DNA from: a virus
Reading direction: 5' to 3' (one strand)
IMG/VR virus record: IMGVR_UViG_3300012348_000111
Location: 41,102-105,101 of that record
DNA: 64,000 nt
Within the stretch, counting starts at the first letter, position 1. Each line of letters starts with the position of its first letter. The notes under the pieces are model-generated. The model ran no database searches and had not been told where the DNA came from. It worked only from the letters and a program-made list of their open reading frames with translations. Positions 22,475 to 62,019 of the stretch are shown here, in pieces. The position numbers were made by a program, and so were the translations under genes.

Positions 22475-24499
22475 TTATTTAAATTTTTTTGTTTTTAAGT
22501 AGGATCTCTGTAATCCACCATATTTCTTTTTTTCTAATTGAGATGCTCCTAAAGCTGTAGCTGCTGGTGCTCCCCACAATCTATTAAATAAAGCTGCTAA
22601 TTTTTTAGGATCTTTATCTATAACATTAAGAAATTTTGGATCTACAAATTTTGCATTTTCTGGAATTTCAATTTTTCTTATTATGTCTTTAGCCATTTCT
22701 GGAGTAACCATAGTAGATTGTTCTGGAGTCATTCCTAAAAGGTTTCTTAACTGCATAATTCTAGCATGCATTTCAGTTGGTTTAGCTAGATATTCTAAAT
22801 GAAAGGCTTCGGGTGAATAATCATATGTACCACTAGACATACTTTTCTTTAAATTATCAGAGTATAGATCTTTTATAAAATCGGTTTGTCCAGATTCTCT
22901 TAATAAGTAATTAGAAGTCCAATCATGAGTTCCTTCATGTATAGTAGTAGAGCGTCTTTGTGCTGAAGACCTAGAAGGAATTCTACTAATAAAACTACCC
23001 ATTTTAGGATTATTTAATGTTTCTGGCATTAATCTTTCATAAGGATCTTTTCTATGGAGGTAACTTACACCAGTATTACCAGAATGCATATGAGTATCAC
23101 CAGAAAAAAGATCTTTTAATTGTTGTGAAAAAGGATATTCTTTAGAAATAGGTGTAAATGATTTAGCTTGCTGATAACCTAATCCATATTGATCATTTCT
23201 TTGAGAGGCCCAAGCTAAATCATTTTCTATTTTATTTTGAGTTATTGGATCAGCTATCCAATTCTTTAACCAGGTATTTCCTTCTTCAATAGCTTTTCTA
23301 TTTTTACCACCTTTAATTATTTCTCCTTTTAATTCACTACCTATACTTTTAATATTTGCTACTCTATCTGGTATACCAAATATATCTAAAAGATCAGTAA
23401 TTGTACTCTCTGCTTCTCCTAAATTAGAAATACTTGCTGGATTACGTTTATAAATATTCTTTATGGGTTGTTTTAATAATCCTGCTCCAAGTAAATTAGT
23501 TGGATCTAATACCGCATCAACTGCAAATGCTCCGTAAGGATTTTGAATATTCATTGCCTCAGAAGGGGTTTGTACTTTACCAGTAACAGCATAAGTTGCT
23601 GCATACTGAGGGGCATTCATAGATTCAAATGCAAGGTTCATAAATGGATTAGGTTGTTTATACCATTCAGATCCTCCTGTTGCATCACTTATTCTTTTAG
23701 CATAAGATCTTCCAAATTTTCTTAAAGGTCTTTGTATATAGTTATCAAACCATCCTTTATCTTTAGCACGTACATGTACTTGTCCTATTGTTTCTGGGTT
23801 TTGTTCTGTTGATACTTCTCCAGCATCTTGATAAGATTTTAACCAACCACCGCCTTGCATTCTAGGTTTAATCATAGGAGCTAATCTAGTATTGTCTTGA
23901 TAACCTCCAAATTGAGTTTGCTGATAAGGATTTGAATTTAGAATAGTTCTTGCTCTATCTACTGGTTGAGTAAAACTATTACCTATTTTAGATGCTCTAT
24001 TTAAATTGTGTGAGCTAGATGCCAATCCTCTTGCTAGGTTACGAGTTCCTGCATTATTAGCAACTCTTGCTGCAGCCATAAAGCCTTTAGCAGCACCTCC
24101 AGTCAAAATATTTGCAGTATTTAATCCTGCACCTAACCAATCACCTTGATACAAATCATAAGCTAATCCTAATCCTGATGCAGTCATGCCAACTGGTCCT
24201 GGTATCATAGAAGTAACATCTAATGCTACTTCTGCACCATTCTGCATTTTACGTTCATAAACAGAATTATCATTAGGAAAAGAATACTCTCTTCCTGGTT
24301 GCATAATTTGTTTTTGTCCTGATTGCATACCTATGCCCATAATAGGAGAGTCAAAGTAATCTGATTCTCCATTAGGACCTTTCATCGTAATCCTATTAGA
24401 AGGAACTACTACAGGATCGTTTTGATACCACATACCCGTATTACTTACAGGTGTTTTAGTAAATCTTTTTTTAGCTTGATATGTATTTTTTAATCCCAT
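22475..24499 (-). CDS. Modular virion protein with pre-toxin-TG-like segment and C-terminal zincin metallopeptidase
   Basis: ALDVTSMIPGPVG...YQGDWLGAGL segment; TIHEGTH...EMHAR zincin; domains separated by xxG[GA] motifs. Confidence 0.6.
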   Translation of the reverse strand: MGLKNTYQAKKRFTKTPVSNTGMWYQNDPVVVPSNRITMKGPNGESDYFDSPIMGIGMQSGQKQIMQPGREYSFPNDNSVYERKMQNGAEVALDVTSMIPGPVGMTASGLGLAYDLYQGDWLGAGLNTANILTGGAAKGFMAAARVANNAGTRNLARGLASSSHNLNRASKIGNSFTQPVDRARTILNSNPYQQTQFGGYQDNTRLAPMIKPRMQGGGWLKSYQDAGEVSTEQNPETIGQVHVRAKDKGWFDNYIQRPLRKFGRSYAKRISDATGGSEWYKQPNPFMNLAFESMNAPQYAATYAVTGKVQTPSEAMNIQNPYGAFAVDAVLDPTNLLGAGLLKQPIKNIYKRNPASISNLGEAESTITDLLDIFGIPDRVANIKSIGSELKGEIIKGGKNRKAIEEGNTWLKNWIADPITQNKIENDLAWASQRNDQYGLGYQQAKSFTPISKEYPFSQQLKDLFSGDTHMHSGNTGVSYLHRKDPYERLMPETLNNPKMGSFISRIPSRSSAQRRSTTIHEGTHDWTSNYLLRESGQTDFIKDLYSDNLKKSMSSGTYDYSPEAFHLEYLAKPTEMHARIMQLRNLLGMTPEQSTMVTPEMAKDIIRKIEIPENAKFVDPKFLNVIDKDPKKLAALFNRLWGAPAATALGASQLEKKKYGGLQRSYLKTKKFK

Positions 24500-26338: not shown

Positions 26339-26344
26339 GGTATT

Positions 26345-29300
26345 TTAGTTGGTTTGTGTTATTTGTAAATGATTAATAAATCTGTAACGTGAATACTTAT
26401 CTTGAATTAATCTTACTTTACATAAATCAGATTTGATTTTTTGTTTCTGATAAGATACAGAAGAAGGTATTACAGTTTTAGTATTTGGTACTTTATCTAT
26501 TGGGTGTTGTAATTTCTTATCATCCCATTTAGTTGACCATAACGGTTGCCCATTAGATTGATTCACAATGCTCCAAAATCCATTAAACGTATATATGTTC
26601 TCTCTACGTGAGATAATCGTTTCTATGCCGTTTAAAGTGGTTCTAGGGTACATTATCTTTTGGCGAGTATTACCAAACTCTTCAGGAATAAGATTAATTA
26701 TTCCAGATGACTGCTCTCTATTGTAAATAATAGCTTTGGTAAAGTTTGCCAAGTTTTTATTATTTGCTGTTGCAATAGAGTAGTATTCGTAATCAGAATA
26801 GTATTCTTGAATATCTTGAATTAAACTGATTGAGTTTGTTGTTGCTGTTTTAGGAAAAGAGTTTACATTGTATTCAAGAATGTAAGGATACAACTTATTG
26901 TAGTAAGTTTGATATGTAAGATTATTTAAGTTATGATTCCAAGTAGACGATCCTAATGGTGTGTTTATTATTGTTTGGAAGTTACCTAACAATGAAACAT
27001 AGTAGTTAGGAGTAAATGAATAGAAAGAAATAAAGTTTTTAAGTTTAGGTGAATACCCTATAGTCCAAGAATGATTTTCCCAAATATCTTCATTTGAAAA
27101 TAATGCTTCTGTTTGAGTTCCTGTTATAACAAACTTTTTAGTTTCGTCATTATAAGTAACACTTGTTTTACCAGTTAACTTATAATCGAGTTTAGTTATA
27201 AATACTCTTTCAAATCTCTCATCCCATCCCATAGAAATACCAATTCCTTTTGCTGGATTATCTATATCCGCATTAGGGAAATCTTTTAGTATTCTAAATG
27301 GAAGGTTTTGTTTAAACCAGTTAAAGTTTGTATCTGATTTAATTTCACTAAATCCTTGTTTAGAAATTTGATAAATATGTCCTCTTTTAGCATCTACCCA
27401 GAATGTTCCGAATTCAGTTCTTATTTGAGCTTTATGTTGTGAACCTACATAACCAATATCTGATTTAGATATGTCTATAGGTTTTTGTTTAAACATACTA
27501 GCATCTCCTATTTCTAGTTGAACAGGTGATGTAGATTCTATTTGTACTCTTGCACCATATACTTTAGTTGTGTTTTCAAAACGAGCATAAACTAATTCGT
27601 TTTCTCCACCAGTAAGGTTAATAAGTCTTCCTCCTTCTTTAGGGAAATCAAAGAAGTTACCTCTCTTAAATGTTTGCCACCCATCACTAAAATATTTAGT
27701 AGTATTTGCTTTTTCAGAATAAATAACTCTATTCGGATGTACTACTACACATGTTCTATTTGGATTATCTACTGTGTATGGTAAGTTAGGGCTTATATTT
27801 TGAGCAGAGTATGTTGCGTTATAGTGATAGAAGTTATCAAACTTAATTGGTACGTTTACTTCTTTTAACCACTCGTCAGGAATTTCATCACTTACGTTAG
27901 GATAGAAGTTTTCTTCTCTATCGTTTCTACCGTGTCTAAAGTCTACGTTAACATCTGACTCTACAAAGAAAATAGGAATACCATAAGAAGCTGTATAGAA
28001 CTGTCCTTTCTTATAAAGAGAAACTGAGCTATTAGCTGAATCTAAATTTATCTTAGGTTTCTTTATATCGTAAAGTGAAGCTAGTGCTAATTGTATGGCT
28101 CCTATTTGTAATACTTGAGCAGCATTAGTTGCTCCAGCAGGAATAGGAGTCGGTAATATATTATTAGCTGATATTACAGAAGCAGTTGCTACTCCTATAG
28201 CTGTTGCGGCAGCACCAACCAATATACCCAAAGATACCCAATCAATTTCATCTGAAGAAGTTCCTATGAAGTAAGTAGGATAAGCTAAGTTAGGAAATAA
28301 CCAGTAATCAAAAGGCATGTCTTTTGTTTTAGCTGGAAGATTTGCTAAGTTTCTAGTAAAGAAAGAATGCTTGCGTTTAAGAGCAAATTTATTAATATAA
28401 GTATCTCCTCCAAATGCAGGATAATACTTAGGTTTTAATACTGCTTTATCTGCAACAAAATTATCTTCTAAATCTACTATGTAACCAGTTGATACGTACC
28501 TTATGTTTTCTATTTGGCCGTATTGATTTTCAAATGTTCTTTTAACTGAAGTATAGTAAGCTCTAGTTCTTTTAGAACTATCTACAAGTATTGGATTTTT
28601 CTTTATTGTAGGATCTTGAATTTCAGAAATAGTATATCTAGATGTATCGTAGTTATCATCAACTATAGGGCCAGTATGATGAATAAAAGTATCATTTGTT
28701 TTTAAATATACACTTGATTCTCTTAATCTATTATGTACTGGAATATCGTCTTCAACACTAGATATTTTAGAATCTAAATATTTTCCTATGTCTAGAAATC
28801 TTCTTTTGTTTCCTGTGTTACCAATAGGAGAATAATTGTTGTATGCAGCTACTGAGTTATATTGCCAAGCAAAGTTTATGTAAGGTACTAACTTTTCTAT
28901 AATATCGTAAAGAAGTTGTGTTTGAGCAACTTGATTTGCAATATTGGTTGTTAGTTCAGAACCTAGTGGTTCGGTTGCTGAAGCTTTTACAGAACCCGTA
29001 AGTATATAAGCAGCTCCCGCACCTAGTACAAAAATTAAAGAATCGGATACTAGATTTAAAAACTTATATTCAGGATGTTCTTCTACTGGTACAAAGTGAC
29101 CTAATACTTGACCATACTCAATTGTTTCAAGTTTAAGTTCAGTTCCTATCTTAGGATATTGAAAAGTAGTGTCTGGTGAATAGAAAGTAAAACGATTTTG
29201 TAATCTAGGAGTTCCTTGATAGTTAAAAGGATTTTGCTGAAAAGAAGTACTTAATGATTCACCCCTATCTCCTTCTTCATACCATTCAGCTTTGTTTGCC

Positions 29301-32158: not shown

Positions 32159-32614
32159 TTATTTTACTTTGTTGTTAAAAATCAATTTTCCTAAATTTCT
32201 TTTGTTTGTTCTATTCAACATAAAGTTGAAACATGAAAGTATAGGATTCCTTTTATAATTAAGATAAAGATGTACTTTAAACATGTATCCATTAGTATGA
32301 GAGTTTCTATTTAGAACTCTTTCTCCTGTTTTTCTAAAGTGATTCCAATCAACTCTAGAAGCATTTTTACTAAATGGTTTTATCTTAATTAATTTTAGAA
32401 CTCCTAACTCAGGTATTTTAATGTAATAGCTTTGAGAGTACAGTTTGTTTATCATCTTTTCGTGTACTAAAACAGGTATCGATGAAAACATTTCGTAGCT
32501 AATATCTTTTCTACCAGTGTCTTTTAAGAATCTTCTGTATGCAGACATGTTTAACATGTTCACATCTGATTCTAAGTTTTTTCTTTGTTTAGGGTTGGTT
32601 TGGTTTTCTGACAT
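32159..32614 (-). CDS. IHF/HU-like DNA-binding protein
   Basis: IKIPELGVLKL...VDWN...NSHTNGY; occupies the position of the crAss IHF-like gene between ring genes. Confidence 0.7.
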   Translation of the reverse strand: MSENQTNPKQRKNLESDVNMLNMSAYRRFLKDTGRKDISYEMFSSIPVLVHEKMINKLYSQSYYIKIPELGVLKLIKIKPFSKNASRVDWNHFRKTGERVLNRNSHTNGYMFKVHLYLNYKRNPILSCFNFMLNRTNKRNLGKLIFNNKVK

Positions 32615-32616
32615 TA

Positions 32617-33258
32617 TTATAATTGTTCGTCTCTATTATTATCTTGTTCTTCTGGGGCAAGTTTATGATAATTAATTAAAGACTGATTGCAAAGTTCTAC
32701 AAGAGGATCAATTAAGTAAGCGGGTATTTTAAATTCTTTATCATACATACTTACGCAATTAACACCATCAATATCTTCTATTGATTCTGTAAAGTATGCG
32801 TATATATTAATCCTTTCAACATCTGGATCCAAAACGTATAAATAACTATCTTTGATAGTGTAGAATTTTTTGGGCGATTTGATCCTAAGCTGGCTATGAT
32901 TAATATAATCTCTTATTGAAGTTGGGTGAATTTCTACAGAATTAGATGGATTAAACACACCTTGAATAAAGTAAGAATATAAACCTTCTTCTATTTTTGG
33001 TAACTTTTTTCTAGTTCTTCTTACTGGACAATTCAAATCACACTCCGTACCATTAACTAAAACAAGATCAACACATTCGTAATTTTGATATAAGTTGTCT
33101 GATGTAAGAAGTTTTCTTTGATTCCCCTCCCTTTTAATAAGAACAGATGCTTTCTGCTTTAAAAGACTATATAAATAACGATCACTGATTAAATCATCAT
33201 CAGCAAGAAACTTGTTTGCATTTTTCAGCCTAGAAATTAAATCAGCGTTAGATACCAT
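32617..33258 (-). CDS. Tail ring (tubular) protein
   Basis: Size, RTRKKLP and YLYV motifs, and crAss synteny. Confidence 0.7.
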   Translation of the reverse strand: MVSNADLISRLKNANKFLADDDLISDRYLYSLLKQKASVLIKREGNQRKLLTSDNLYQNYECVDLVLVNGTECDLNCPVRRTRKKLPKIEEGLYSYFIQGVFNPSNSVEIHPTSIRDYINHSQLRIKSPKKFYTIKDSYLYVLDPDVERINIYAYFTESIEDIDGVNCVSMYDKEFKIPAYLIDPLVELCNQSLINYHKLAPEEQDNNRDEQL

Positions 33259-33286: not shown

Positions 33287-33317
33287 CAAATATAATATAA
33301 TTTATAAGTTTTGTCAA
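33287..33317 (-). promoter_or_regulatory. Bacteroidota-type -33/-7 promoter
   Basis: TTG-N20-TATATTTG upstream of 33258. Confidence 0.75.
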
Positions 33318-33339
33318 TAAATAGAAATTAGTTTAAACT

Positions 33340-33363
33340 AAAAGAGCCTGAATTAACAGGCCC
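33340..33363 (-). terminator. Intrinsic terminator
   Basis: Minus strand GGGCCTG-TTAATT-CAGGCTC-TTTT. Confidence 0.7.
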
Positions 33364-33402
33364 ATTCTAGCGACAGGAAAACCAACCAAAAATACCCGTC
33401 AA
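33340..33402 (-). ncRNA. Candidate 3'-UTR small RNA with exposed seed loop
   Basis: Stem GACGGG/CCTGTC closes the loop TATTTTTGGTTGGTTTT and is followed by a terminator. The loop is complementary to several gene starts. Confidence 0.5.
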
Positions 33403-33408
33403 TATTTT

Positions 33409-35391
33409 TTATTCAACTGCCCAGGTAATTCCACCTAAAGTTACGATTAAATAATCTCCAGTGTTCATACCTATAGTTGAACCAGTATAGTTAAATAAAG
33501 ATAAGAATGGTGAGCCAGAAGAAGTTTCTATTCTTAAAATAAGCATATATACTCCTTGTAATGTTCCACCACTACTATAGTGTTGTACTGGAAGAATACA
33601 CTCAGTATCACCTCCAAAAGAAAGACCTATTGAACTTGCTTGGAAACAATCAATACCTGTGTTGTTTGGCATAGATTGAGCTGATCCAGGATTAGTTACT
33701 TTAAATCCAGCAGTACCTCCTTTAAAAGTTGCAAGTCCACTTGATTCAAAATGTTTAATTGTAGGATAAACAGTACAGTTTCTTCCCAAATCTACGCTAA
33801 ATGGTCCACCACTTATTGGGAATGTAGGACTAGCAATCGGAACAAGAGTGTAATCTTGAAGGATTGGTAAAGAAACAACTCCTTCTAAATAACCAGAAGA
33901 TCCATTATATTGATATGCTGAACTCCATTGTGTTTGTTGAGTTGATCCCGCTACTTTTCTATATACACCTGTTCTAATAAGTTTAGGTTGCCAGCTAGAA
34001 GATCCTATACCAGTAAGAATATGATGAGTTAAGTTTGTTACCGAACCATAAGACACATCACCCATATTAGATAAAACGCAAGATTCTAAAGAAGAACAAC
34101 TAAATGTTGATCCTCCAACAAGACTAATAGTGGGTCCACAAGATGTATTTGTTACAACAAAGTCAGAACTAAATTTAAGATTAAGTGCTGAAAGTGCAGT
34201 AGCAATTTGATTTAAGTGTGTTTGAAGAGTTGTTGTGTTTGTAAAACTACCTAATGCTTGAACATTAAATACAGAATTAGGTGTATATGGTGCAGTAAAA
34301 CAACCCCAGTTAACTGTATAGTTAGAAGAAGGTGTTGCTCCTACTGCTGCAATTGTAGAACAAAGTTGAGATACAAGTAAGTTTACAGCATCTTTTAAAG
34401 AAGATGTAGTTGATCCACCAGTTAAGCAAGAAGTATTTACAGATGTTGGAAGTGGTGCTGAAGGAGATCCTGTGATATACTGATTTATGTTAGAAACAAC
34501 AAGATTAGTAGAAGATAAAGAATTACTTAAAACTGAGTGTATACCACACATGTTATTAGTAACCCAGTTGATGTATTCATATACATTGCTAGATGTGGGT
34601 TTAGATGTAAATGCGTATCCTATGCAAGGGTTAGCATTTACACTTGTCATTGTTAGATTTGTATCGTGAGTACAAATTTTAGATCCGTAAGAATCTAAAA
34701 TATTGACAAGAGTAGATGTTCCACTTGTAAGAACTCCTGTAAGGCAAGAAGGTACTACAATTGCTGGTTTTTCTAATGCTTTAACTCTAGTGTTAATTGA
34801 ACATAATGCAGCAGCAGTAGCTTCTACAAATCCTTCAGCATTGGTAATAGGTGTACCTACTGATTCTAAGTTACCTCCTACTCTTAAACAACCATAGTTA
34901 AATCCTGTATAGTCTAATCCACTAGGGCTAGTAGATGCGATTAAACAAAGTCTGTTGTTAAAGTTTTGAATTACTGAATCTAAGTCAGCACCATTTGCAA
35001 TAACTGCAGCTAAAGTAGATATGGTAATTGTAATATTGTTTGTTGGTGATGTCCCACCTAATAAAGTACCTGCAATAGTTAATGTGTCGGATACTTCATA
35101 ACTAGATCCACTATTATTTAAAGTTACTTCGTATGTAGTAGATCCTGCTCTACGAATAACAGTAAATGTTGCTGATGTTCCATTACCTCCTGTTGCAGAT
35201 GCTACAACTGTAGTATCAACAGATGGTGCTACAGCAGTTCCAGTGAAACCAAATGTAGCAATAGCTCCTGATTGACAGAATAGGTTTGAACCACTATATG
35301 TGATACATTTAGCATAGTTTGTAGAAAGACAACCTACTGATCCACAAGGTTGTGCTGTATTGGTTCCGTAGCAATCGTTACAAGTAGACAT
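33409..35391 (-). CDS. Cys/Ser/Thr-rich tail fibre or appendage protein
   Basis: 660 aa; KCITYSG motif, repeated xxLC helices, beta-rich C-terminus; follows the tail hub genes. Confidence 0.6.
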   Translation of the reverse strand: MSTCNDCYGTNTAQPCGSVGCLSTNYAKCITYSGSNLFCQSGAIATFGFTGTAVAPSVDTTVVASATGGNGTSATFTVIRRAGSTTYEVTLNNSGSSYEVSDTLTIAGTLLGGTSPTNNITITISTLAAVIANGADLDSVIQNFNNRLCLIASTSPSGLDYTGFNYGCLRVGGNLESVGTPITNAEGFVEATAAALCSINTRVKALEKPAIVVPSCLTGVLTSGTSTLVNILDSYGSKICTHDTNLTMTSVNANPCIGYAFTSKPTSSNVYEYINWVTNNMCGIHSVLSNSLSSTNLVVSNINQYITGSPSAPLPTSVNTSCLTGGSTTSSLKDAVNLLVSQLCSTIAAVGATPSSNYTVNWGCFTAPYTPNSVFNVQALGSFTNTTTLQTHLNQIATALSALNLKFSSDFVVTNTSCGPTISLVGGSTFSCSSLESCVLSNMGDVSYGSVTNLTHHILTGIGSSSWQPKLIRTGVYRKVAGSTQQTQWSSAYQYNGSSGYLEGVVSLPILQDYTLVPIASPTFPISGGPFSVDLGRNCTVYPTIKHFESSGLATFKGGTAGFKVTNPGSAQSMPNNTGIDCFQASSIGLSFGGDTECILPVQHYSSGGTLQGVYMLILRIETSSGSPFLSLFNYTGSTIGMNTGDYLIVTLGGITWAVE

Positions 35392-37164: not shown

Positions 37165-37226
37165 TTATTTTTTTTTAAATTATTAGGGGGAGGGTTTAGC
37201 TCCCCCTAGGATTAAACTTAGATTAA

Positions 37227-39014: not shown

Positions 39015-39956
39015 TTAAAGACTATTCATTCTATACTTGTTAATTAACTTTTCTTTGAAGGCTTCGTATTCTTCTGTATGTTTTGGATCAGCCAAGAATA
39101 ATTCAAATTCTTCAATTGATTTAGACCATACAAATTCTCCTTCATATACAATACCACTTTTAACTCTCACTACGTTTTCACTAACAAGGTCTTTAACCAA
39201 AGCTTTAACGTCTAACAAGTCATCTGAGTAAGCTGTAATTGTATTAAACTTCTCAATAGGATCATAACCTAGTCCTGAAGTAGAAGTACGCAAGAACTCA
39301 TCAATTGCATTATATACTTCTTCTTCTGTAGCTAAGTTAGATAATCCCAAACCGATAAGTTTTTGGATTTTCTTACGTTTCAAAGAACTAATAGTATCAA
39401 GAGTAGCAATTGCACTATTGATGCGTTTCTTACGTTCAAAAGTAGATTTAGTTTCAATTTCTCCATCGTAAACATAAAATCTTACAATGTTAGTATCAAC
39501 TCTCTTACTTTCTACTTCATCTAGAGATTTTGCAATCATTTCGGTTTCCATCAACCAGTAATAGTTTACTGCGTCTCTTGGATTATCCATATTGAAAAGA
39601 TTATCTGTATCTTCTAGATTGTATCCATTTTCTTTTATTTCATCATAGAACGTACTGTTTGGTTCTAAAGATTCGTCAAGGATTGATTCGTAATAAAGTC
39701 TTAAACTTTTTACTCTTTCGAATTCTTGATCTCTAGCAGTAGAACTTTCGATTGCTCTAATTCTAATAGAGTTTTCATCAAGTCCAGTTCTAATTACACC
39801 ACGTGAATCAACACGAGGGAAAAATTTCTTAATTGTTCCAGGTACAAAATTGTAACCTTCTTTGTACAACGACCCTTCTAATGTTCTCATATTAGAGGGT
39901 TCTCTTCTGATTGGGCGAATTACTTTTACGCCTTTTGATTGATTGGTTTCTGACAT
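39015..39956 (-). CDS. Conserved crAss-like protein downstream of the major capsid gene
   Basis: Likely true start is ATG 39956 (MSETNQ); the track used an upstream TTG. TGLDEN motif; synteny. Confidence 0.7.
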   Translation of the reverse strand: MSETNQSKGVKVIRPIRREPSNMRTLEGSLYKEGYNFVPGTIKKFFPRVDSRGVIRTGLDENSIRIRAIESSTARDQEFERVKSLRLYYESILDESLEPNSTFYDEIKENGYNLEDTDNLFNMDNPRDAVNYYWLMETEMIAKSLDEVESKRVDTNIVRFYVYDGEIETKSTFERKKRINSAIATLDTISSLKRKKIQKLIGLGLSNLATEEEVYNAIDEFLRTSTSGLGYDPIEKFNTITAYSDDLLDVKALVKDLVSENVVRVKSGIVYEGEFVWSKSIEEFELFLADPKHTEEYEAFKEKLINKYRMNSL

Positions 39957-40029
39957 ATTTGTTGGTTTATTTTTTAAAGCCAATTGGGAGGGCTTTTATA
40001 CCCTCCCTTTTTGACCTAGATTTTATTTA

Positions 40030-41559
40030 TTAGAGACGTGGGAATTCTTTGATGATCACTGTTTTGGTAGGATCTTCCAAGAAAATACCACAGAAGTCTT
40101 TCATGATGTAAGTAGAGTAAGGATCTTTACTTGCTACTACAGTCTGTGATTGACCGAATCCAGTAGTACCAGGGATATAGTGATACTGCATGTTAGGACG
40201 AGTAGACAATTTTACCTCACGGATACCAGCACCTTCTTGACCAGATACATCCAAGATAATGAAAATTGGAGGAGTCTTCTTGTTAGGACCTAATTCCAAG
40301 AAAGTAGCATGCATGTTCAATTGTTCTAGTTCTACGAACTCAACTGGACCAGTTTCTACAGTCATGAAGTGATCGAATTGGAAAGCATAACCTTGCTTCA
40401 AGCGATCTTTACCATCCAAGAATTTCTCAGCGTCAACCATAAAGTTTTGACCATTGAAGTCTTTGCGAATAGCAGTAGATGCCAATTCCATACCTGAACG
40501 GTTAGTGTAAATTTTAACACGACGATCAGCCAATTTAACACGGTTATAGAACAAGTCTCCGATAGCTGCACGAATCAAGTTCAAAGAGAATTGACCTTTA
40601 TCGTAGTAGATAACGTTACCTAAGTGAAGTTGTTGCCACAAACCAGCTTTTAAACGGGTAGGACGACCTTTTTCATCTACGGTGTTACCTTGACGACCCC
40701 ACATCAACATGTTTGCTTTCATACGCATCATTTCCATACGTAACAAACGAGATACTGTAGGTTCCCAACCAACGATCTTAGTTTTTTCAGCAGTAGCGTT
40801 AGGATCAGTTACAGAGTAGTAGGTGATATCCATAGGATTACCAGTAGCATCTGTAGGCATACCAAGTTTGGTTGCATCAGCCCAGTCAGTAAGAGTGTGC
40901 TCTACACCATATTGGTTAAGAACATCAGCCATAACTTCCAAGTTACCATCAAACAAACCAAGTCCAGAGAATGAAGTGGTGTACTCACCCAATACGTTAC
41001 CAATTTTGAAGTATTCAGTACCTACTGTCAAGAAACGAGCAGGAACAGCATCAGCAGCAGTTGCACCAGCAGCACGACATTTAAATTTGTAACCATTTTG
41101 ATGACGCTCACCTTCAGATACGATTTGAACCTGAACTTCTTGCTCATAACGATGTGCAGTGATGATATCGTTTACAGCAAATGCATTCTTATCGAATACC
41201 AATTCAAATTCAGCTCCATCAGCACCTTTAGCTGAATCGCTAGCACCAAAGCCTACAATAACTTTAGGAAGTTCTGCACGCTTCTTAATTTTGTAGGTAA
41301 AGATACCATTAGGATCATTTACCATGAAGGGTTTCTCAGACTTCATTACTGTATCCAACAAATCGTTAGAATACAATTGAGTGTCTGTGAAAAGACGCAA
41401 CATCATTTTGTCATACTGATCAGGCTTTGTACGCAACATAGTTTCTACAAAGTTCTTTTCAGTGAATTTACCCAAGGCGTTCTTACTATAGAACGAGCTA
41501 GTCATGTGGGCATTGGCTATCACACGACCATTAACTCTTGGAATGTTTTGATTAGGCAT
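40030..41559 (-). CDS. Major capsid protein
   Basis: 509 aa; LMWG...AGLWQQL and GIFLEDPTK motifs; biased codon usage; position after portal and scaffold. Confidence 0.9.
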   Translation of the reverse strand: MPNQNIPRVNGRVIANAHMTSSFYSKNALGKFTEKNFVETMLRTKPDQYDKMMLRLFTDTQLYSNDLLDTVMKSEKPFMVNDPNGIFTYKIKKRAELPKVIVGFGASDSAKGADGAEFELVFDKNAFAVNDIITAHRYEQEVQVQIVSEGERHQNGYKFKCRAAGATAADAVPARFLTVGTEYFKIGNVLGEYTTSFSGLGLFDGNLEVMADVLNQYGVEHTLTDWADATKLGMPTDATGNPMDITYYSVTDPNATAEKTKIVGWEPTVSRLLRMEMMRMKANMLMWGRQGNTVDEKGRPTRLKAGLWQQLHLGNVIYYDKGQFSLNLIRAAIGDLFYNRVKLADRRVKIYTNRSGMELASTAIRKDFNGQNFMVDAEKFLDGKDRLKQGYAFQFDHFMTVETGPVEFVELEQLNMHATFLELGPNKKTPPIFIILDVSGQEGAGIREVKLSTRPNMQYHYIPGTTGFGQSQTVVASKDPYSTYIMKDFCGIFLEDPTKTVIIKEFPRL

Positions 41560-41586: not shown

Positions 41587-42750
41587 TTATCTAAAATATT
41601 TTGCAAATAAATCATCTTGTTTACCTGATTTACTTGATGTTTTTGTTTTTGTTTTTAGACCTTTGAAAATTGTATTTGTTTCTTCACTTACTGCTTTCTT
41701 TTTAACAGGACTTAGATCCAAATCTTTTTGAACTAATCTTGCTACAGCTAAAAACTTTTTAGGGTCTTCTTGACGCATTGTAGCTAGACGATATTCAAAA
41801 TCAGATATTCTTTGACCGTTAGGAAGAACGTGTGGTTTATCTAAAACAAAAGAAAATAGTTCTTCAGCATCGGAGTTATTAATAGGATATCCTTGAATAT
41901 CTCCAGCCTTTACTGATTCTTCTAACGTTTTAGCATAAAGTTCTTCTCTTTCTTGCTCACGTTTTTGAATATCTTGCATTCTTACTTCTGCTTCTTGAGC
42001 TAAACGTAGACGTTCTTCTTGCATTTTTTCTACCAATTTACCTTGATATTTTCCTGCATAAGCTTCTAGTCTTCCGTTATCTCTAGCATAAGCTAACTGA
42101 TCCTCGATTTCATCATCGTCCATTCCAGTCTTTGCTAAGTAAAGTCTAAAGATTCTTTCCTGATTTATTTCTTCAGAAAGATCTACATTCTCTACTGTTT
42201 GTTCATTACTGAACATTTGCAAATACTGAGGAACTGGAACCTTATTAATAAAGATGTCTTCGATTAACTTTACTCCAGCTTCACCGTATGTTTCCATTGC
42301 TAATTCTTCCATCTTAGCCCACATACGATTGTCTACAGTTTTTTCCATCACGTTAATGAATGATTTTTCATTCCATTCTTCAACTTGATTATCTTCATCT
42401 TCAAGATCTAGAATTCCTGCTTGAGCAAGACCCTTTGCAAATACTTCGAAGGTGTTGTCTGATTCATCATCATCATCATCATCTGATGTAGTATCTTCTT
42501 CCTCTTCTTCTTCTTCCTCTTCTTTAGGAGTTGGAGGTGTTGGTGTTATTTCTTTCTTAGGTAGAGGTAAATCATCTTCAGAATCATCTGAATCAGTATC
42601 CTCTAAAGGATCAAAATCTTCACCGTTTAAAATATCTGGTTTGATATTTTCGTTAGGGTCTGGAGTAAGTCCATCTGAATCATCCAGAGGATCGTTATCC
42701 ATAAAACTTTCAAAGAACTCTAAACTTTCGAGTTTGTTATCGGTACTCAT
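41587..42750 (-). CDS. Acidic scaffold-like protein
   Basis: Very acidic low-complexity N-terminus plus coiled coil; lies between portal and capsid genes. Confidence 0.7.
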   Translation of the reverse strand: MSTDNKLESLEFFESFMDNDPLDDSDGLTPDPNENIKPDILNGEDFDPLEDTDSDDSEDDLPLPKKEITPTPPTPKEEEEEEEEEDTTSDDDDDDESDNTFEVFAKGLAQAGILDLEDEDNQVEEWNEKSFINVMEKTVDNRMWAKMEELAMETYGEAGVKLIEDIFINKVPVPQYLQMFSNEQTVENVDLSEEINQERIFRLYLAKTGMDDDEIEDQLAYARDNGRLEAYAGKYQGKLVEKMQEERLRLAQEAEVRMQDIQKREQEREELYAKTLEESVKAGDIQGYPINNSDAEELFSFVLDKPHVLPNGQRISDFEYRLATMRQEDPKKFLAVARLVQKDLDLSPVKKKAVSEETNTIFKGLKTKTKTSSKSGKQDDLFAKYFR

Positions 42751-42772
42751 AATGGTTGGTTTTAGTTTAATT

Positions 42773-42834: not shown

Positions 42835-45288
42835 TTACTTCTTACCTTTAGGTTTATCGTATTGATTTTTGTTAATAGTAGCTATCTTTAACTTATTATC
42901 AATATCCTTTTCCTTAAGTTGTAACTCTTTCTCTTTCAATGACATCTCTTTAGATTTTACTGCTTTTTCAAAGTTTTGCTTAGAAATATCTTGAGAAAGT
43001 TTAGTTTGTTTAATAAGAAGATCTGTGGTATCTACTGTAGGACTGAATGAACCCTCATTAGCAATACCTCTTAGTTTTTCTACCTCTAATCGGTTTTGTC
43101 TATCTAGTTCTTTATTCATGTCTTCTCTTTGAGCATCTTCCATTCTACGCTGTTCTTCAACCTGCAACTTCATTTGGAATTGTTCTTGTTGTTGCTGCAT
43201 TTGCTGTTGTTGCATAGCGTTTTGTTGATCAAGGATAGCTTGCTTACGTTTTTGTACATCTTGAAGAGTTCTACGTAATGAACGTTCTGAATCAGCAGTA
43301 AACAAATCTAACATCTCAGAAAGTTCTGCTCCATTCTGCATAGCAGGTTGAGCTAACTGTTTAAGTTGTTCAAGAGTTTGTTTATCTTCAGCATAAGAAG
43401 TTACAAATACAAATAGTTCGTGAAGAAGTTCGTTATTATTGATTCTTAAGAAAACATTCTCTAAATCTGTATTTAAGTAGTTTAGAGTAGATGTAGGTTT
43501 TTGTAATTCTACATATTGAGAAATTTCAAGTATAGTTTGGTACACATCTCTTAATACTGAATCGTGGAAAGCAAACCAGTTTTCTGTTTGAGCAAATGAT
43601 TGTTGTAAAGCATTGTTGTTTACAGTTGCTGCTTCAGATGCTTGTGCTGATCCCAAACGTTGTGGAGTAATACCAATAAGTTGATAAGCTTCTACTCTTA
43701 ATTGTTGTGCTAATTGAATACGTACTTGGATTTCAGCAGAACGAGTTAAATCTAAACGAGAGAACTGATTAAATTGTACTGCTCCTCCTGTATTTTCAAT
43801 AGAAGTATCGATAAGCAATGTGCCTCTATTCTTTGCGTTCCAAAGCATTGTTTCAATTGGATCTTGAGAATCTTTACGAGGAACTACTTTCATGTCTCCC
43901 AAGAACACTACACCTATTTCTTTTTCAAGAAGTTCCCATAACTGATTCATACAGATATTATAAAGAACTTGATAAGGTTTAATAAGATCTAGAAGTGATT
44001 TACCTTGAGTGTTTCTAGAAGTATTGATAATACCTACAATAGGTGCTCTATCGATAAACTCCAAAGGTTCTACATCAATATAAATATCTGCTCCAATCTT
44101 TACTCCTTTCCACCACTCATTAATCCAAAGTTCTTCTAATGAGATATCGCCAGCTTCTTTGTCAAAACCATAATCTTCAGACACAAACATTTCTTGTTGG
44201 TATCCTTCTTCATCCATGTATGTACGTTTGAAGATTTTCTTTTTTGATTGCCAGTAAGAAGTAACAACAGTAAATGCGTGTTGAGAGTTAAATGAGAATA
44301 CGTTAGTATCTATACCACCATTAGCAAAGTCACCTACGTTTTCAAAAGTAAGTTGCCATAATGGATCTTGAGGATCTGGAAGAGCTGGAGCTAATGGAGA
44401 GTATTCGTTATTACGTAAGTTTTGTAAAGCCCTTTCATTTAAGTGTTCTACTTCTTCTCCTGTTAGAGTATAACGATCAATAATTTCACTCATTGAAAGT
44501 ACTTCGATAGTTCCTAGTGCCCAACAATCATCTGTTGTTTGAGCATTACGATTTGCCAAATACCACACGTTAGATGGGTTCTCTACTTTATAGTTAAAAC
44601 CGATACGTGAGTTGTCTGGATAGAAGTGGTGAAACTCTTTACCTGTAATTAGAAAGTCTAAGAAAGCTTGTTGAGATTTATCTTTAAAATTAAAAGTATA
44701 TTTTAAAGCTGTTAGAAGCTTATTACCCCATTCTTCAGCAGTAGATGTGTAGTCAAGAATTTGGTTTTGAACTTGTTGTTCCATTTGCATTCTTTGCTCT
44801 GGATCTATCTCTTGACCTTCTAGTGAAGCATATAGATTTTGAAGAAAGAAATCTTTAATAAGATTTGTTCTATAATCTATAGTTTCGTTAATTGCTTCAT
44901 CGTCTATAGCTTTAACTTTATATTTATGGGGTCTATTGTTTAGTTCTCCTTTTAATTGATTAATAGGAGGAGTTACAATAGAATAGTGTTTTAAGTGTTG
45001 TGGAATTTCAGGATCTTGTTCAGGTACATCTGACAAGTACTGAACCATTTCTTGAATCTCTGCAGAATTGTTATAGTCTTCAAAGTTAAATTCACCATTG
45101 AACAATCTGTAGTTTTTACGAAATGTTACATTTTGTTTGTATTGAGCAAAAGCAATATTTGCAAAATAATCAAGGGTAGATTTAATCCAATGTTCAGTTT
45201 CTTTCTCTTTCTTAGAAATAAATTGTTTTGGATAGAAGTACGCGTGATTTACTGGATCAGTGTACTCTTTTAATGCTTCAATTATCAT
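42835..45288 (-). CDS. Portal protein
   Basis: 817 aa; INQLKGE, WINEWWKG, KPYQVLYN and GITPQRLG motifs; Q-rich C-terminal coil. Confidence 0.9.
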   Translation of the reverse strand: MIIEALKEYTDPVNHAYFYPKQFISKKEKETEHWIKSTLDYFANIAFAQYKQNVTFRKNYRLFNGEFNFEDYNNSAEIQEMVQYLSDVPEQDPEIPQHLKHYSIVTPPINQLKGELNNRPHKYKVKAIDDEAINETIDYRTNLIKDFFLQNLYASLEGQEIDPEQRMQMEQQVQNQILDYTSTAEEWGNKLLTALKYTFNFKDKSQQAFLDFLITGKEFHHFYPDNSRIGFNYKVENPSNVWYLANRNAQTTDDCWALGTIEVLSMSEIIDRYTLTGEEVEHLNERALQNLRNNEYSPLAPALPDPQDPLWQLTFENVGDFANGGIDTNVFSFNSQHAFTVVTSYWQSKKKIFKRTYMDEEGYQQEMFVSEDYGFDKEAGDISLEELWINEWWKGVKIGADIYIDVEPLEFIDRAPIVGIINTSRNTQGKSLLDLIKPYQVLYNICMNQLWELLEKEIGVVFLGDMKVVPRKDSQDPIETMLWNAKNRGTLLIDTSIENTGGAVQFNQFSRLDLTRSAEIQVRIQLAQQLRVEAYQLIGITPQRLGSAQASEAATVNNNALQQSFAQTENWFAFHDSVLRDVYQTILEISQYVELQKPTSTLNYLNTDLENVFLRINNNELLHELFVFVTSYAEDKQTLEQLKQLAQPAMQNGAELSEMLDLFTADSERSLRRTLQDVQKRKQAILDQQNAMQQQQMQQQQEQFQMKLQVEEQRRMEDAQREDMNKELDRQNRLEVEKLRGIANEGSFSPTVDTTDLLIKQTKLSQDISKQNFEKAVKSKEMSLKEKELQLKEKDIDNKLKIATINKNQYDKPKGKK

Positions 45289-45299
45289 TTGTGTGTTGT

Positions 45300-47306
45300 T
45301 TAAAGTCTAAATGGGGAACGTGTTTGTCTAAAAAGAGATGGTTTTTTTGTAGATCTAAAATACTCTTTCATACGAGTATCATCATCATTGTTTCTAATTA
45401 CTACTTGAGTATTTAGTGATTTTGCCATAGCAAGTGTTAAGCCGAAAGAAACTACTCGGTCAACGTTAAGTTTAGGGGTAAATTTAATAAGTTCTTTAAG
45501 TAAGAGTGGGTCTAATATTCTAGACACACCTAATCTTTCTCTTGTTGTATTTCCTTGTTCGTCTCTTTCTATATCAATTACTTCTGTTAGATATTCTATG
45601 ATTAAGGAAAGGATATAGTTTTTTATATCTTTAGTCATGTGTATTCCATAATCACGATTAACAGTAGAGTTAGGATGTATATCGTTAAGAAAAGTAGGTG
45701 TTCTTTCGAGAAGTCTTTGTCCTTCATTTTTATCTACGCAATGCTGTATAAAACCATAGTCCATGTTTTCGACTAATGATTTAGCGTTATAGTATTTAAG
45801 TAATAGTTTGGTTGTTTCATACCAGGTATCTATCTTTTTAGGACGACCCGTATAAGAAGCTACTACTATGTTTTGCCAACCTTCACCAGCTAATCCGTGT
45901 ACTCTTTTGTATATGTAGGTTGAACCTAAAGATGTAGAGTAATGAGCTTGAGATTGTTTGTATGGGTCAGTTCCAGCTGTGTAAAGACCATAGGGTGCGT
46001 CCATTAAAGGATATTCCCATATTTGAATACATCCTTCTAGATTATCTGAAGGTTTGGTTGGAAAGTTTTCTACAGGTTTTTTATCTGTAAATTTATGTCT
46101 CACTTTACCTTCAACATCTAAGTATAATTCTACGTTATCAGCTTTAATGTCTTGATTGATAAGTTTACTTAGTTGTTCTTGAAGTAAGTCTACTGGAAAA
46201 ATGTTTTGAGATAATTCTAAGAAACACTCTTCATGTGTTAGAGGATAATACATTACCTCTTTAAGGTAAGCCTCTAGACCACTAGATTTCTTTGTTTGTT
46301 CTCTAGTCTTTAGGATCTGTTCTTTACCTTTTTCTTCATCTGCTATCCAAATAGTTATATTGTCTAATTCAGATGCTTCTTTTACTTCTAAATGTAATCC
46401 TAATGGTACTGGGGTTTTAGGTACTTTAAGAGATTTTGTTCCTGGTACAAACAAACCATATGACTTTCCTGTTTCATTTGTTTCAACTGAAAGAAAGTTA
46501 TAAGCTTCTGGATTATTGAAGAGTTCTTCAAGATCTCCTGCTTTAGTCATGTCTCCAGAAGTTCCAATAACAATAGGAGAACAACGCCATCCATAAGGTG
46601 AGTCAAAACAAGGAATGGTCGCAGCAAGACAAGCTAACATATCTCCTTTACCTGCTTCTTCTAACATAAAAGAAGAAAGTGTAAGACCTGCTGCTGCTTC
46701 CGTATTGTTTCCTTCATTGAAGTTTCTTACGTGAATCTTTGACCATTCATGTCTTTGGTTGGTTTTTTTGTCTTTATATCCAAGAGTTACTTGTCTTTTC
46801 CAATCGTCTTCTATACGAGGAAATCTAAAATACTCTGGTAAGTTTCTAAGAGTTAAATCTACGGCTTGAGTAGTATTGTTTAAGTCAGGTTGATTTAGAG
46901 CTGAGATAAGGTGATCTCCACCTTTAAGAGTAATTGCTTTATGTGCAATATAAGACGATGTGAGCATAGTCTTTGAAATACGACGACTACCTACAATAAC
47001 AACACCTTTCTTTCCATCTTCATGTGTTTCTGCTCTTGTGATAGCATTATCGATTTCAAAGTAAGTATCCCATAGCTGAGGTCTACCTAATTGACGAACT
47101 ACTCTTTTACCTTGTTGTATATCTAAGTAAAGAGAAGCATAGTTTAAATGCCAATAAATAAAAGGAGAAAAATAAAAACCATTGATTGTTATACCTTCAG
47201 TAATTTTTTTATCTTCATTTTCCCAAAATGCAGTATACTCCCTTGATTCTGGATCAGGGATTGATTTAACATTTATTAGAAATTCCGAACTATTAAAATT
47301 ACTCAT
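45300..47306 (-). CDS. terL: Terminase large subunit
   Basis: GSRRISKT Walker A, MLEEAGK Walker B, AGTDPY nuclease motif, NVDRV. Confidence 0.92.
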   Translation of the reverse strand: MSNFNSSEFLINVKSIPDPESREYTAFWENEDKKITEGITINGFYFSPFIYWHLNYASLYLDIQQGKRVVRQLGRPQLWDTYFEIDNAITRAETHEDGKKGVVIVGSRRISKTMLTSSYIAHKAITLKGGDHLISALNQPDLNNTTQAVDLTLRNLPEYFRFPRIEDDWKRQVTLGYKDKKTNQRHEWSKIHVRNFNEGNNTEAAAGLTLSSFMLEEAGKGDMLACLAATIPCFDSPYGWRCSPIVIGTSGDMTKAGDLEELFNNPEAYNFLSVETNETGKSYGLFVPGTKSLKVPKTPVPLGLHLEVKEASELDNITIWIADEEKGKEQILKTREQTKKSSGLEAYLKEVMYYPLTHEECFLELSQNIFPVDLLQEQLSKLINQDIKADNVELYLDVEGKVRHKFTDKKPVENFPTKPSDNLEGCIQIWEYPLMDAPYGLYTAGTDPYKQSQAHYSTSLGSTYIYKRVHGLAGEGWQNIVVASYTGRPKKIDTWYETTKLLLKYYNAKSLVENMDYGFIQHCVDKNEGQRLLERTPTFLNDIHPNSTVNRDYGIHMTKDIKNYILSLIIEYLTEVIDIERDEQGNTTRERLGVSRILDPLLLKELIKFTPKLNVDRVVSFGLTLAMAKSLNTQVVIRNNDDDTRMKEYFRSTKKPSLFRQTRSPFRL

Positions 47307-47629: not shown

Positions 47630-47828
47630 ACTTTTCTAAAAATTCTTCTAAGTCTAAATTGGATAAATCTTCAAGGACAGTAGTGTAGAAATCTTCTTGT
47701 TTACCTGTGTGATGATAAGCATAACCTGCTTTCCAAAATATCTTCCATGTTGCATAGAGTTTATCTTGAAGAGTTGGGTTTAGATTTAAAGGTTTCTTTT
47801 TTAATTGATTGGTTGGTTGGTTTTCCAT
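47619..47828 (-). CDS. Hypothetical protein
   Basis: 69-aa ORF overlapping the next gene. Confidence 0.65.
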   Translation of the reverse strand: MENQPTNQLKKKPLNLNPTLQDKLYATWKIFWKAGYAYHHTGKQEDFYTTVLEDLSNLDLEEFLEKYGN

Positions 47829-48842: not shown

Positions 48843-49186
48843 TAGTCCTTTTTAGTTTCTACACCTAAAAGTAAAACTAAACTAATTGCTTCTTTATCTG
48901 CAGGAACTAGTTTTCTGTTTACTTGATTTTTTTCAAGAACACCTAGTTTTCTAAGTCTTGTGATTCCATTAGAAATTACTTGTACAGATGTGTTGTTTTT
49001 TTCAGCAAGAATCTGTTTTACATTTTTGTCTAGTTTTCCATAATAAGATACATTGGCTAAAATATTAGTGTATAAGTCAGATAGTCTGTATCCAGCAAGT
49101 CTTAGAATAATATCTATATATGCTTGTTGGAATGCGACTCCGTCATCATACTTTCTAGCTATTTTAGCTGATTTAACGGCTTTCAT
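48842..49186 (-). CDS. HTH DNA-binding protein
   Basis: LAEKNNTSVQVISNGITRLRKLGVL wHTH pattern. Start moved to ATG 49186 because the promoter overlaps the track's start. Confidence 0.65.
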   Translation of the reverse strand: MKAVKSAKIARKYDDGVAFQQAYIDIILRLAGYRLSDLYTNILANVSYYGKLDKNVKQILAEKNNTSVQVISNGITRLRKLGVLEKNQVNRKLVPADKEAISLVLLLGVETKKD

Positions 49187-49214
49187 TTTGATTGGTTTAT
49201 TTTTAAAATTAAAC

Positions 49215-61752: not shown

Positions 61753-62019
61753 ATGAAGTATTTGAAATTTATACTCGAAAGTAACTCTAATAAGGAATTA
61801 GATTTACTAAGCAGAAAGATAGTAAAAATCGCTAAAGAAACAGGTGCTGTAAAAGCAGGACCTATTCCTTCTAAAGGTAAGCGAATTATCTTTGTGTACA
61901 ATCCTAACATTGGTACTATTAATAGACTTCTTTTATTAAAATTAAGTAAGAAGGTCTCTACTAATGTAACAGAGTTAGAAAGAAAGTTTGATGAACAGTT
62001 CTATTTAGATTGGAACTAA
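61753..62019 (+). CDS. rpsJ: Ribosomal protein uS10/NusE homologue lacking the ribosome-binding loop
   Basis: LD..SRKIVKIAKETGAVKAGPIP and KRIIFVYNPNIGTINRLLLLKL align with S10 KIVKT.K.TGA.V.GPIP and KRLIDI...T...T.DALM.L.L. The intervening loop is replaced by SKG. Confidence 0.75.
   Translation: MKYLKFILESNSNKELDLLSRKIVKIAKETGAVKAGPIPSKGKRIIFVYNPNIGTINRLLLLKLSKKVSTNVTELERKFDEQFYLDWN

Follow-up and report, generated by a model that had tools for sequence, protein, structure and literature searches.

Results

The Spacer behind the Probable Tail-Fibre Gene Holds a Hairpin, a Terminator, and a Promoter

The stretch of DNA analyzed here (hereafter, the window) comprises 64,000 nucleotides, bases 41102–105101 of a 105,101-bp single-contig virus record. 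The phage is uncultured and has a crAss-like genome layout. Pfam/PHROGs searches located the major capsid protein (Crass_capsid) at 40030–41559 and a P22-like portal at 42835–45288, and the window also has ORFs of 4,245 and 1,962 aa. When the region was compared with named phages by blastn, no match was found, relatives being detected at the protein level only: TerL is 40% identical to that of Leptolyngbya phage Lbo-JY46 and ~30% identical to those of Cellulophaga and gut crAss phages. ARAGORN found no tRNA within the window. Of the named relatives, Lbo-JY46 (L085, PP438436.1) is the closest by TerL. It is listed as a phage of cyanobacteria and carries a large tRNA array; its gene starts have no Shine-Dalgarno (SD) sequence, and several of them lie behind TAnnTTTG-like boxes (tcgtatctttg, tcgtatatttg), as in Bacteroidota phages.

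Gene starts in the window are likewise free of SD sequences, have A at −3 and near −12, and in several cases follow a TAnnTTTG box. TAnnTTTG promoters together with absence of SD make up the pattern described for Bacteroidota (PMC7366714). The late promoters conform to TTG-N19-20-TAnnTTTG, e.g., TATATTTG and TATTTTTG, and are found at 33287–33317(−) as well as upstream of the starts at 42750, 49186, 36602, and 50900, which implies a Bacteroidota host and late transcription by the host RNA polymerase.

The 660-aa gene in the ORF list (33409–35391(−), TAA stop at 33409–33411) probably encodes a tail fibre, since its product weakly resembles (E 5e-6) the protein annotated as tail fibre in Lbo-JY46, whose gene is at the syntenic place. 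The 150-nt spacer behind this gene contains, in order, a hairpin, a strong intrinsic terminator, and a Bacteroidota-type promoter. Hairpin 1 (33372–33400(−)) starts eight nucleotides past the stop of the 660-aa ORF; its arms, GACGGG (33395–33400) and CCUGUC (33372–33377), form 6 bp, one of them G-U, and enclose a G/U-rich loop of 17 nt, UAUUUUUGGUUGGUUUU (33378–33394(−)). The loop core GGUUGGUU (33380–33387(−)), which is conserved in relatives, is the proposed seed. The terminator (33335–33370(−)) has a 13-bp extended stem, a 6-nt loop, and a U-rich tail: GGGCCUG pairs with CAGGCUC at 33344–33363, CUAGAA/UUUUAG extends the pairing to 33338–33370, and the U's come next. For hairpin, loop, and terminator, all coordinates and sequences given by the first-pass annotation of this DNA were correct. 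The promoter of the next operon (33287–33317(−)) is composed of TTGACA, ~17–20 nt, and TATATTTG (11/12 match); read as TTGACA-N17-TATATT(TG), it is near the consensus cited in PMC7366714. Downstream lies a gene for a 213-aa virion structural protein (32617–33258(−); phrog_9863, E 5.5e-17).

When folded as a 68-nt unit (33335–33402), hairpin and terminator form together at −25.2 kcal/mol. Hairpin 1 folded alone gives −7.5 kcal/mol with z = −1.9; its stability is marginal, with z from −0.9 to −2.6, and in an 88-nt context the minimum free energy structure prefers other pairings over the stem originally proposed. No promoter or processing signal that would define a 5′ end is visible upstream of hairpin 1. 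The RNA is therefore best viewed as the fibre-gene message's 3′ UTR, perhaps in processed form, and the element is most likely a 3′-UTR-borne RNA rather than an independent sRNA gene. The predicted 3′ end of this RNA is supported by the terminator. A search for sequencing runs that contain the stretch listed a single run, of unclassified type, with 0.36 of its words, and none of RNA. An Rfam search of the 64-kb window (GcvB, GibS-like, C4, and other families) returned no matches at gathering score.

The Loop Is the Most Conserved Part of the Spacer

To follow the spacer in related phages, we used 48 IMG/VR loci that had been retrieved with the 213-aa protein as anchor (57%–73% identity). Of these 48 loci, 47 retain the loop core GGTTGGTT, as does the window, and TTGGTT is invariant in all of them, including the outlier L041 (UAUUGGUUUU). 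In the adjacent gene, none of the 205 aligned third-codon positions is invariant among 38 distinct sequences. We conclude that strong purifying selection acts on the nucleotide sequence of the loop. It is the loop sequence and not the stem that is most conserved in the spacer. The position of the element is constant, 8–12 nt past the stop codon with the terminator directly behind, and the promoter before the 213-aa gene is kept in all 48 relatives as TTGAC...TAtaTTTGTA. The 3′ coding end of the 660-aa gene is hypervariable among relatives, and the hairpin-terminator-promoter spacer that follows is conserved. The first-pass annotation had cautioned that the loop sequence TATTTTTG also fits a promoter; this reading was rejected because the sequence is not conserved, relatives having GATTTTTTG, GATTTAGG, or TTACTTGG instead, and there is no properly spaced −33 element such as a Bacteroidota sigma-ABfr promoter would have, with a TTG ~19–20 nt upstream of its TAnnTTTG −7 box.

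Per-sequence folds predict an equivalent 6–8 bp stem in each of 30 distinct relatives, with the seed unpaired in the loop every time. The case for hairpin 1 is nonetheless softer than that for the terminator. The arms of hairpin 1 are mostly conserved and stem changes are mostly one-sided; A-to-G changes in the arms fall opposite U, which keeps G-U pairing on the sense RNA only. A single pair in L001 is compensatory. In L041 the stem is entirely different (GUUCA/UGAAC), and an alternative fold competes with it. The terminator covaries: by RNAalifold, 10 of 13 pairs show compensatory double changes, and 98.7% of cells pair. Hairpin 1 was not recovered from the alignments by RNAalifold, and consensus folding yields the terminator only, because in both MAFFT/RNAalifold and covariance-model-based alignments the 3′ arm of hairpin 1 is out of register between classes of different loop length. 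Since consensus folding failed on this arm, hairpin 1 was judged from per-sequence folds.

A covariance model of the element found exactly one copy in each whole genome of the clade that was searched (G000 and G001). In Lbo-JY46 and in Flavobacterium phage FpV4 it gave only marginal matches (E at least 0.03), and the hairpin is absent from both. In L008 (~2938–2951) and in L045, which have the same sequence here, an extra sense-strand AACCAAC is located between the terminator and the downstream promoter.

A C/A-Rich Tag Complementary to the Loop Marks a Subset of Gene Starts

The loop core GGUUGGUU is mirrored by a C/A-rich tag, AACCAACC, at the starts of 7–10 phage genes. The motif AACCAA[CT]CA occurs six times in 7.0 kb of start regions (±30 nt) and once in 95.5 kb of gene interiors, an enrichment at starts that the first-pass annotation had anticipated; enrichment reaches up to ~54-fold. 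Besides the promoter box, words of the AACCAA type are the only C-containing k-mers strongly enriched at starts. Tag positions range from −25 to +25 of the start codon, first codons included. All ~15 near-start copies are on the sense strand, in the plus-strand early/middle block as well as in the minus-strand late block. Tags within codons are read in different frames, giving ENQPTNQ, SENQTNP, and SETNQS. The difference in frame and the restriction to the sense strand indicate that the signal operates at the nucleotide level and is RNA-oriented.

Similar low-complexity N termini, MENQPTNQ, MSENQTNP, and MSETNQS, were seen at 47805–47828(−), 32590–32614(−), and 39936–39956(−). Their similarity arises from the C/A tag being read in different frames; hence, protein sequence is here shaped by an RNA signal. 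One of the very few full copies of the tag in gene interiors is a match within terL, AAAAAACCAACCAAAG (~46751–46766(−)), 542 nt into the gene.

On the strand opposite to the hairpin, class-A relatives read ATGACAGGAAAACCAACC... on the plus strand, and a small ORF was considered there; the candidate was dropped, its ATG being missing in the window and in the D/E classes. The antisense of the class-A hairpin (L002–L025) reads ATGACAGGAAAACCAACCAAAAAA, in which the tag comes after an ATG just as it does at genuine tagged starts. Neither the window (GCGACAGG) nor the D/E classes have this ATG, so the resemblance is probably accidental.

The Loop Is Predicted to Pair with Start Regions

The first-pass annotation had listed six target sites and a 13-nt match inside terL, and all were found at the places given. 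The strongest predicted target is the start of a 69-aa gene, where GGAAAACCAACCAA (47813–47826(−)) is a 14-nt perfect complement of the loop (−21.5 kcal/mol; cofold ddG −19.1). The 387-aa gene after the portal carries AAAACCAACCA (42753–42763(−); −15.0, cofold ddG −13.8) within its short 5′ UTR, just downstream of a TAnnTTTG box, and AAACCAAUCAAAA (49186–49198(−); −14.2) at a 114-aa gene reaches the A of AUG. At a 313-aa gene (39939–39968(−); −13.9), two sites, AAACCAAC at 39961–39968 and AAACCAAUCAA at 39939–39949, flank the AUG. The predicted site in a 151-aa gene, GAAAACCAAACCAACC (32593–32608(−); −15.4, cofold ddG −13.0), covers codons 3–8, and the site AAACCAACUAAAAUA (26341–26355(−); −14.6, cofold ddG −13.1) is upstream of a 126-aa DUF5856/Dps-like gene.

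Plain counts of k-mer complements are uninformative, as A/T-only words dominate them, and duplex energies were used instead. The 17-nt loop forms duplexes with seven start regions at dG ≤ −13 and with five at dG ≤ −14. For 300 composition-preserving shuffles the means were 1.5 and 0.67, and the real values were reached by one and by none of the 300, respectively; in the shuffled-control check suggested with the first-pass annotation, the loop thus beats 299–300 of 300 shuffles. Among 1,387 intergenic 17-mers taken from the transcribed strand, loop windows rank first and second for predicted start-region pairing. When the 68-nt RNA was cofolded with 80-nt targets, a calculation whose ddG includes unfolding costs, ddG ≤ −8 was obtained at 17 of 117 starts versus 21 of 350 interior windows, and the top targets include the genes at 47828, 42750, 26338, and 32614. 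When the seed was lengthened to 20 nt so as to take in stem nucleotides, duplex tests showed no enrichment in several relatives, due to G/C flanks that raise the background. By eye, no convincing complement of the loop was found in the 5′ UTR of the downstream 213-aa gene, and pairing with that leader was discarded.

The first-pass annotation took the targets to be non-virion helper genes embedded in structural operons. This was not supported: equally good sites are present outside the window at starts of plus-strand early/middle genes (e.g., at 23937 in G000, −17.3 kcal/mol), and neither Pfam nor PHROGs confirmed the IHF-like, HTH, and scaffold labels.

Tag and Hairpin Co-occur in the Clade

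We surveyed targets in TerL-centered loci with 10-kb flanks and in further regions of six other genomes. In every relative examined, C/A tags are present at the same orthologous starts, namely those of the ~69-aa gene two genes upstream of terL, the ~390-aa gene after the portal, the ~313-aa gene after the capsid gene, and a ~115–130-aa gene further upstream. In several orthologs the tag fills the short 5′ UTR between the TAnnTTTG box and the ATG; orthologs of the 313-aa gene have AAACCAAACCAA or ACCAACC abutting the ATG. AACCAA is found at 13%–24% of late-gene starts in the clade, with a density of 4–8 per kb at starts versus 0.3–1 per kb in interiors. In the hairpin-less outgroups it is found at 2 of 33 starts (Lbo-JY46) and at 0 of 28 (FpV4). 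Hence, across the one clade and two outgroups compared, tag and hairpin co-occur phyletically.

Covariation between loop and targets is at most suggestive. In a permutation of loops among genomes p was ~0.10, and the energies of cognate versus non-cognate combinations did not differ significantly. The two most divergent loops, those of the D/E class and of G001, are best matched by their own targets. At the 115–130-aa gene, the D/E-class loops, GGUUGGUUGUCUGU, have ACAGACAACCAACC or AGACAACCAACC as counterpart, a match of 12–14 nt that reaches into the 3′ stem arm, and the single-GG loop of G001 faces targets without the second CC, AAAACCAAUA and AAAACCAAA. No compensating target changes were found for the C-class (GGUUGGUUAC) and B-class loops. 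Some class-A genomes have ACAACC targets opposite UUUU, and many class-A targets read CCAAACC or CCACC, so that pairing would need a bulge. Two C-to-U variants that keep pairing by wobble had been offered in support of the first-pass proposal; given that the cognate-versus-non-cognate tests are not significant, we attach no weight to them.

Discussion

A Candidate Base-Pairing RNA in the 3′ UTR of a Late Message

The non-coding element and the start tag described here are real, strongly conserved, and previously undescribed; a literature search found no regulatory RNAs described in crAss-like phages, and we know of none. Our best explanation, which we put forward tentatively, is that the element is a GcvB/GibS-like base-pairing regulatory RNA whose loop pairs with the start tags of phage genes. 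In such a scheme, the last ~70 nt of the tail-fibre transcript would form a two-hairpin module, a hairpin with the loop UUUUGGUUGGUUUU followed by the intrinsic terminator. The RNA would accumulate and act as part of the mRNA 3′ UTR or, once processed, as a ~70-nt RNA, its loop base-pairing in vivo with the C/A-rich start-associated tag AAACCAACCA and variants of it in ~7–10 phage genes. Since Bacteroidota-type mRNAs lack SD sequences and depend on unstructured A-rich leaders, a 10–14 bp duplex inside the 30S footprint would most likely block initiation, and the effect would be repressive. Translation of the tagged genes would thereby be tied to the level of late (fibre) transcription. The first-pass annotation had proposed a trans-acting seed-loop sRNA. 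The exposed, conserved loop, the start-specific sense tag, and the phyletic co-occurrence speak for it; no promoter of its own is visible, so the status of an independent sRNA gene had to be given up, and a trans-acting or 3′UTR-sRNA mechanism appears plausible.

The main rival explanation, which we consider less likely, is that loop and tag are two independent elements whose complementarity has no pairing function. The tag would then be a self-sufficient translation signal recognized by the ribosome, S1, or some protein of the phage or the host, in the manner of start-associated sequences (SAS) or CA-rich enhancers, and the hairpin would be an unrelated 3′-end element serving mRNA stabilization, termination efficiency, or protein binding. 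The tag is indeed degenerate, consisting of A2-4 CC repeats (CCAACC, CCAAACC, CCACC), which fits a signal read by composition or by a protein better than a strict complement, and the lack of significant seed/target covariation points the same way. Behind the TAnnTTTG promoters of genes that are probably highly expressed, the short 5′ UTR often consists of the tag alone, and SAS provide a precedent for start tags without a known RNA partner (PMC3203893). However, independence leaves unexplained why the loop is more conserved than the stem, why the best intergenic complement to the start tag falls in this very loop, and why tag and hairpin are jointly present in the clade and jointly absent from two Bacteroidota-type outgroups.

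An explanation at the DNA level seems improbable. It would make AACCAACC/GGTTGGTT an operator-like site of a phage DNA-binding regulator just downstream of promoters, and the late promoter at 33287–33317 would be preceded by a palindromic operator, the inverted repeat TTGACAG...CTGTCAA around the loop. Several tags are indeed flanked by a TAnnTTTG box and the ATG, the arms of the stem are for the most part conserved in sequence with little covariation, and the 5′ arm resembles a TTGAC −33 element; yet the ~15 near-start copies are sense-oriented in both gene blocks, several sites are inside coding sequence far from promoters (47813–47826, 32593–32608), and the invariant part is the spacer and not the half-sites. 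Moreover, the A-to-G changes in the arms opposite U keep G-U pairs in the sense RNA but break the symmetry of the DNA.

It is just as hard to credit that the hairpin has a cis or structural role only, modulating termination or readthrough into the 213-aa operon or marking a recombination boundary for tail-fibre module exchange, with the tag match due to chance between G/U-rich and C/A-rich composition: a hypervariable gene end beside a conserved spacer is what is seen at module boundaries, alternative folds exist in longer context, and good scores against C/A-rich leaders are reached by other G-rich windows too, but composition-preserving shuffles rarely equal the loop, the 8-nt core is conserved far above neutral expectation, and no conserved alternative (antiterminator) pairing was seen. 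As to the idea of a 16S rRNA mimic, we know of no GGUUGG stretch in accessible 16S regions.

Relation to Known Systems

A base-pairing RNA of the kind we favor would have partial counterparts elsewhere. The C/A elements targeted by GcvB of enterobacteria are themselves translation-enhancing. GcvB reportedly (Sharma et al. in Genes Dev, 2007) uses a G/U-rich single-stranded seed to pair with C/A-rich elements that lie within, or immediately upstream of, the ribosome-binding regions of many mRNAs. The phage element resembles it in setting a G/U-rich seed against C/A-rich elements in or near the initiation regions of many messages. Unlike GcvB, to which it has no sequence or Rfam relation, it is located in a 3′ UTR with no visible promoter, its predicted targets are the phage's own genes, its seed is presented in a hairpin loop, and its host belongs to a type without Hfq and SD.

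In Bacteroides thetaiotaomicron, a conserved single-stranded seed of GibS pairs with initiation regions and represses, and UTR-derived sRNA candidates, including 3′UTR-derived ones that share the mRNA terminator, are recognized in Bacteroides (PMC7366714). With GibS and the B. thetaiotaomicron UTR-derived candidates the phage element shares the Bacteroidota setting, the TAnnTTTG promoters, the absence of SD, and pairing at initiation regions, which is predicted in our case. GibS is a host sRNA from an intergenic region; it has a transcription start site of its own and a 5′ seed and has been experimentally validated, whereas the phage-borne element is a prediction, has its seed in a loop, and shows no homology to it.

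SAS of Cluster K mycobacteriophages are asymmetric repeats found in one orientation near a subset of starts, rare elsewhere, and conserved across related phages; they have a 13-bp consensus, GGGATAGGAGCCC, that contains the SD core and is positioned 3–7 bp upstream of the start (PMC3203893). In several genomes there is one reverse-oriented copy, and the authors left open whether the partner is a phage RNA or a protein (PMC3203893). Like SAS, the tag is asymmetric, present in one orientation at start codons, and conserved among related phages. It differs in being C/A-rich (AAACCAACCA-like) and looser in sequence, in lacking an SD core, and in ranging from −25 to +25; furthermore, its single reverse copy is in the loop of a conserved hairpin that adjoins a terminator. 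The tag is thus analogous to SAS and not a member of that group. In Gram-positive bacteria, the sRNAs RsaE and RNAIII use C-rich UCCC hairpin loops to target the SD sequence of many mRNAs. The phage element would similarly direct a hairpin-loop seed at a ribosome-binding signal common to many mRNAs, although here the pairing is predicted and sets a G/U-rich loop against a C/A tag in an SD-less system.

A broader claim, which we hold with less assurance than the pairing itself, is that this clade of environmental crAss-like phages may run a self-targeting post-transcriptional regulon, in which an RNA freed from the 3′ UTR of the fibre transcript would occupy, by its invariant GGUUGGUU loop, a phage-specific C/A start tag that substitutes for SD on a fixed set of genes, and late transcription would thus re-program the translation of this set. 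How SD-less Bacteroidota messages are selected for translation is poorly understood. Should our reading be true, part of the gene set bears a ribosome-landing signal of the phages' own, and a single RNA from the tail of a late mRNA controls the tagged subset; such an RNA is also a candidate for the type of partner that could account for the long-unexplained SAS phenomenon. If pairing proves irrelevant, the locus is still a well-defined, strongly constrained non-coding element accompanied by a start tag that is clade-specific among the phages compared.

Other Elements of the Window

In Pfam, an 88-aa ORF at 61753–62019(+) matches ribosomal protein S10 below the threshold (E 6e-4; 20.4 bits, cutoff 21.2). 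Perfect G/C-rich hairpins, GGGGGAG...CTCCCCC (~37165–37200(−)) and GGGAGGG...CCCTCCC (~39984–40010(−)), are located just upstream of the 153-aa and 313-aa genes, respectively. Both are found in the same places in relatives and are probably intra-operon terminators or processing/stability elements.
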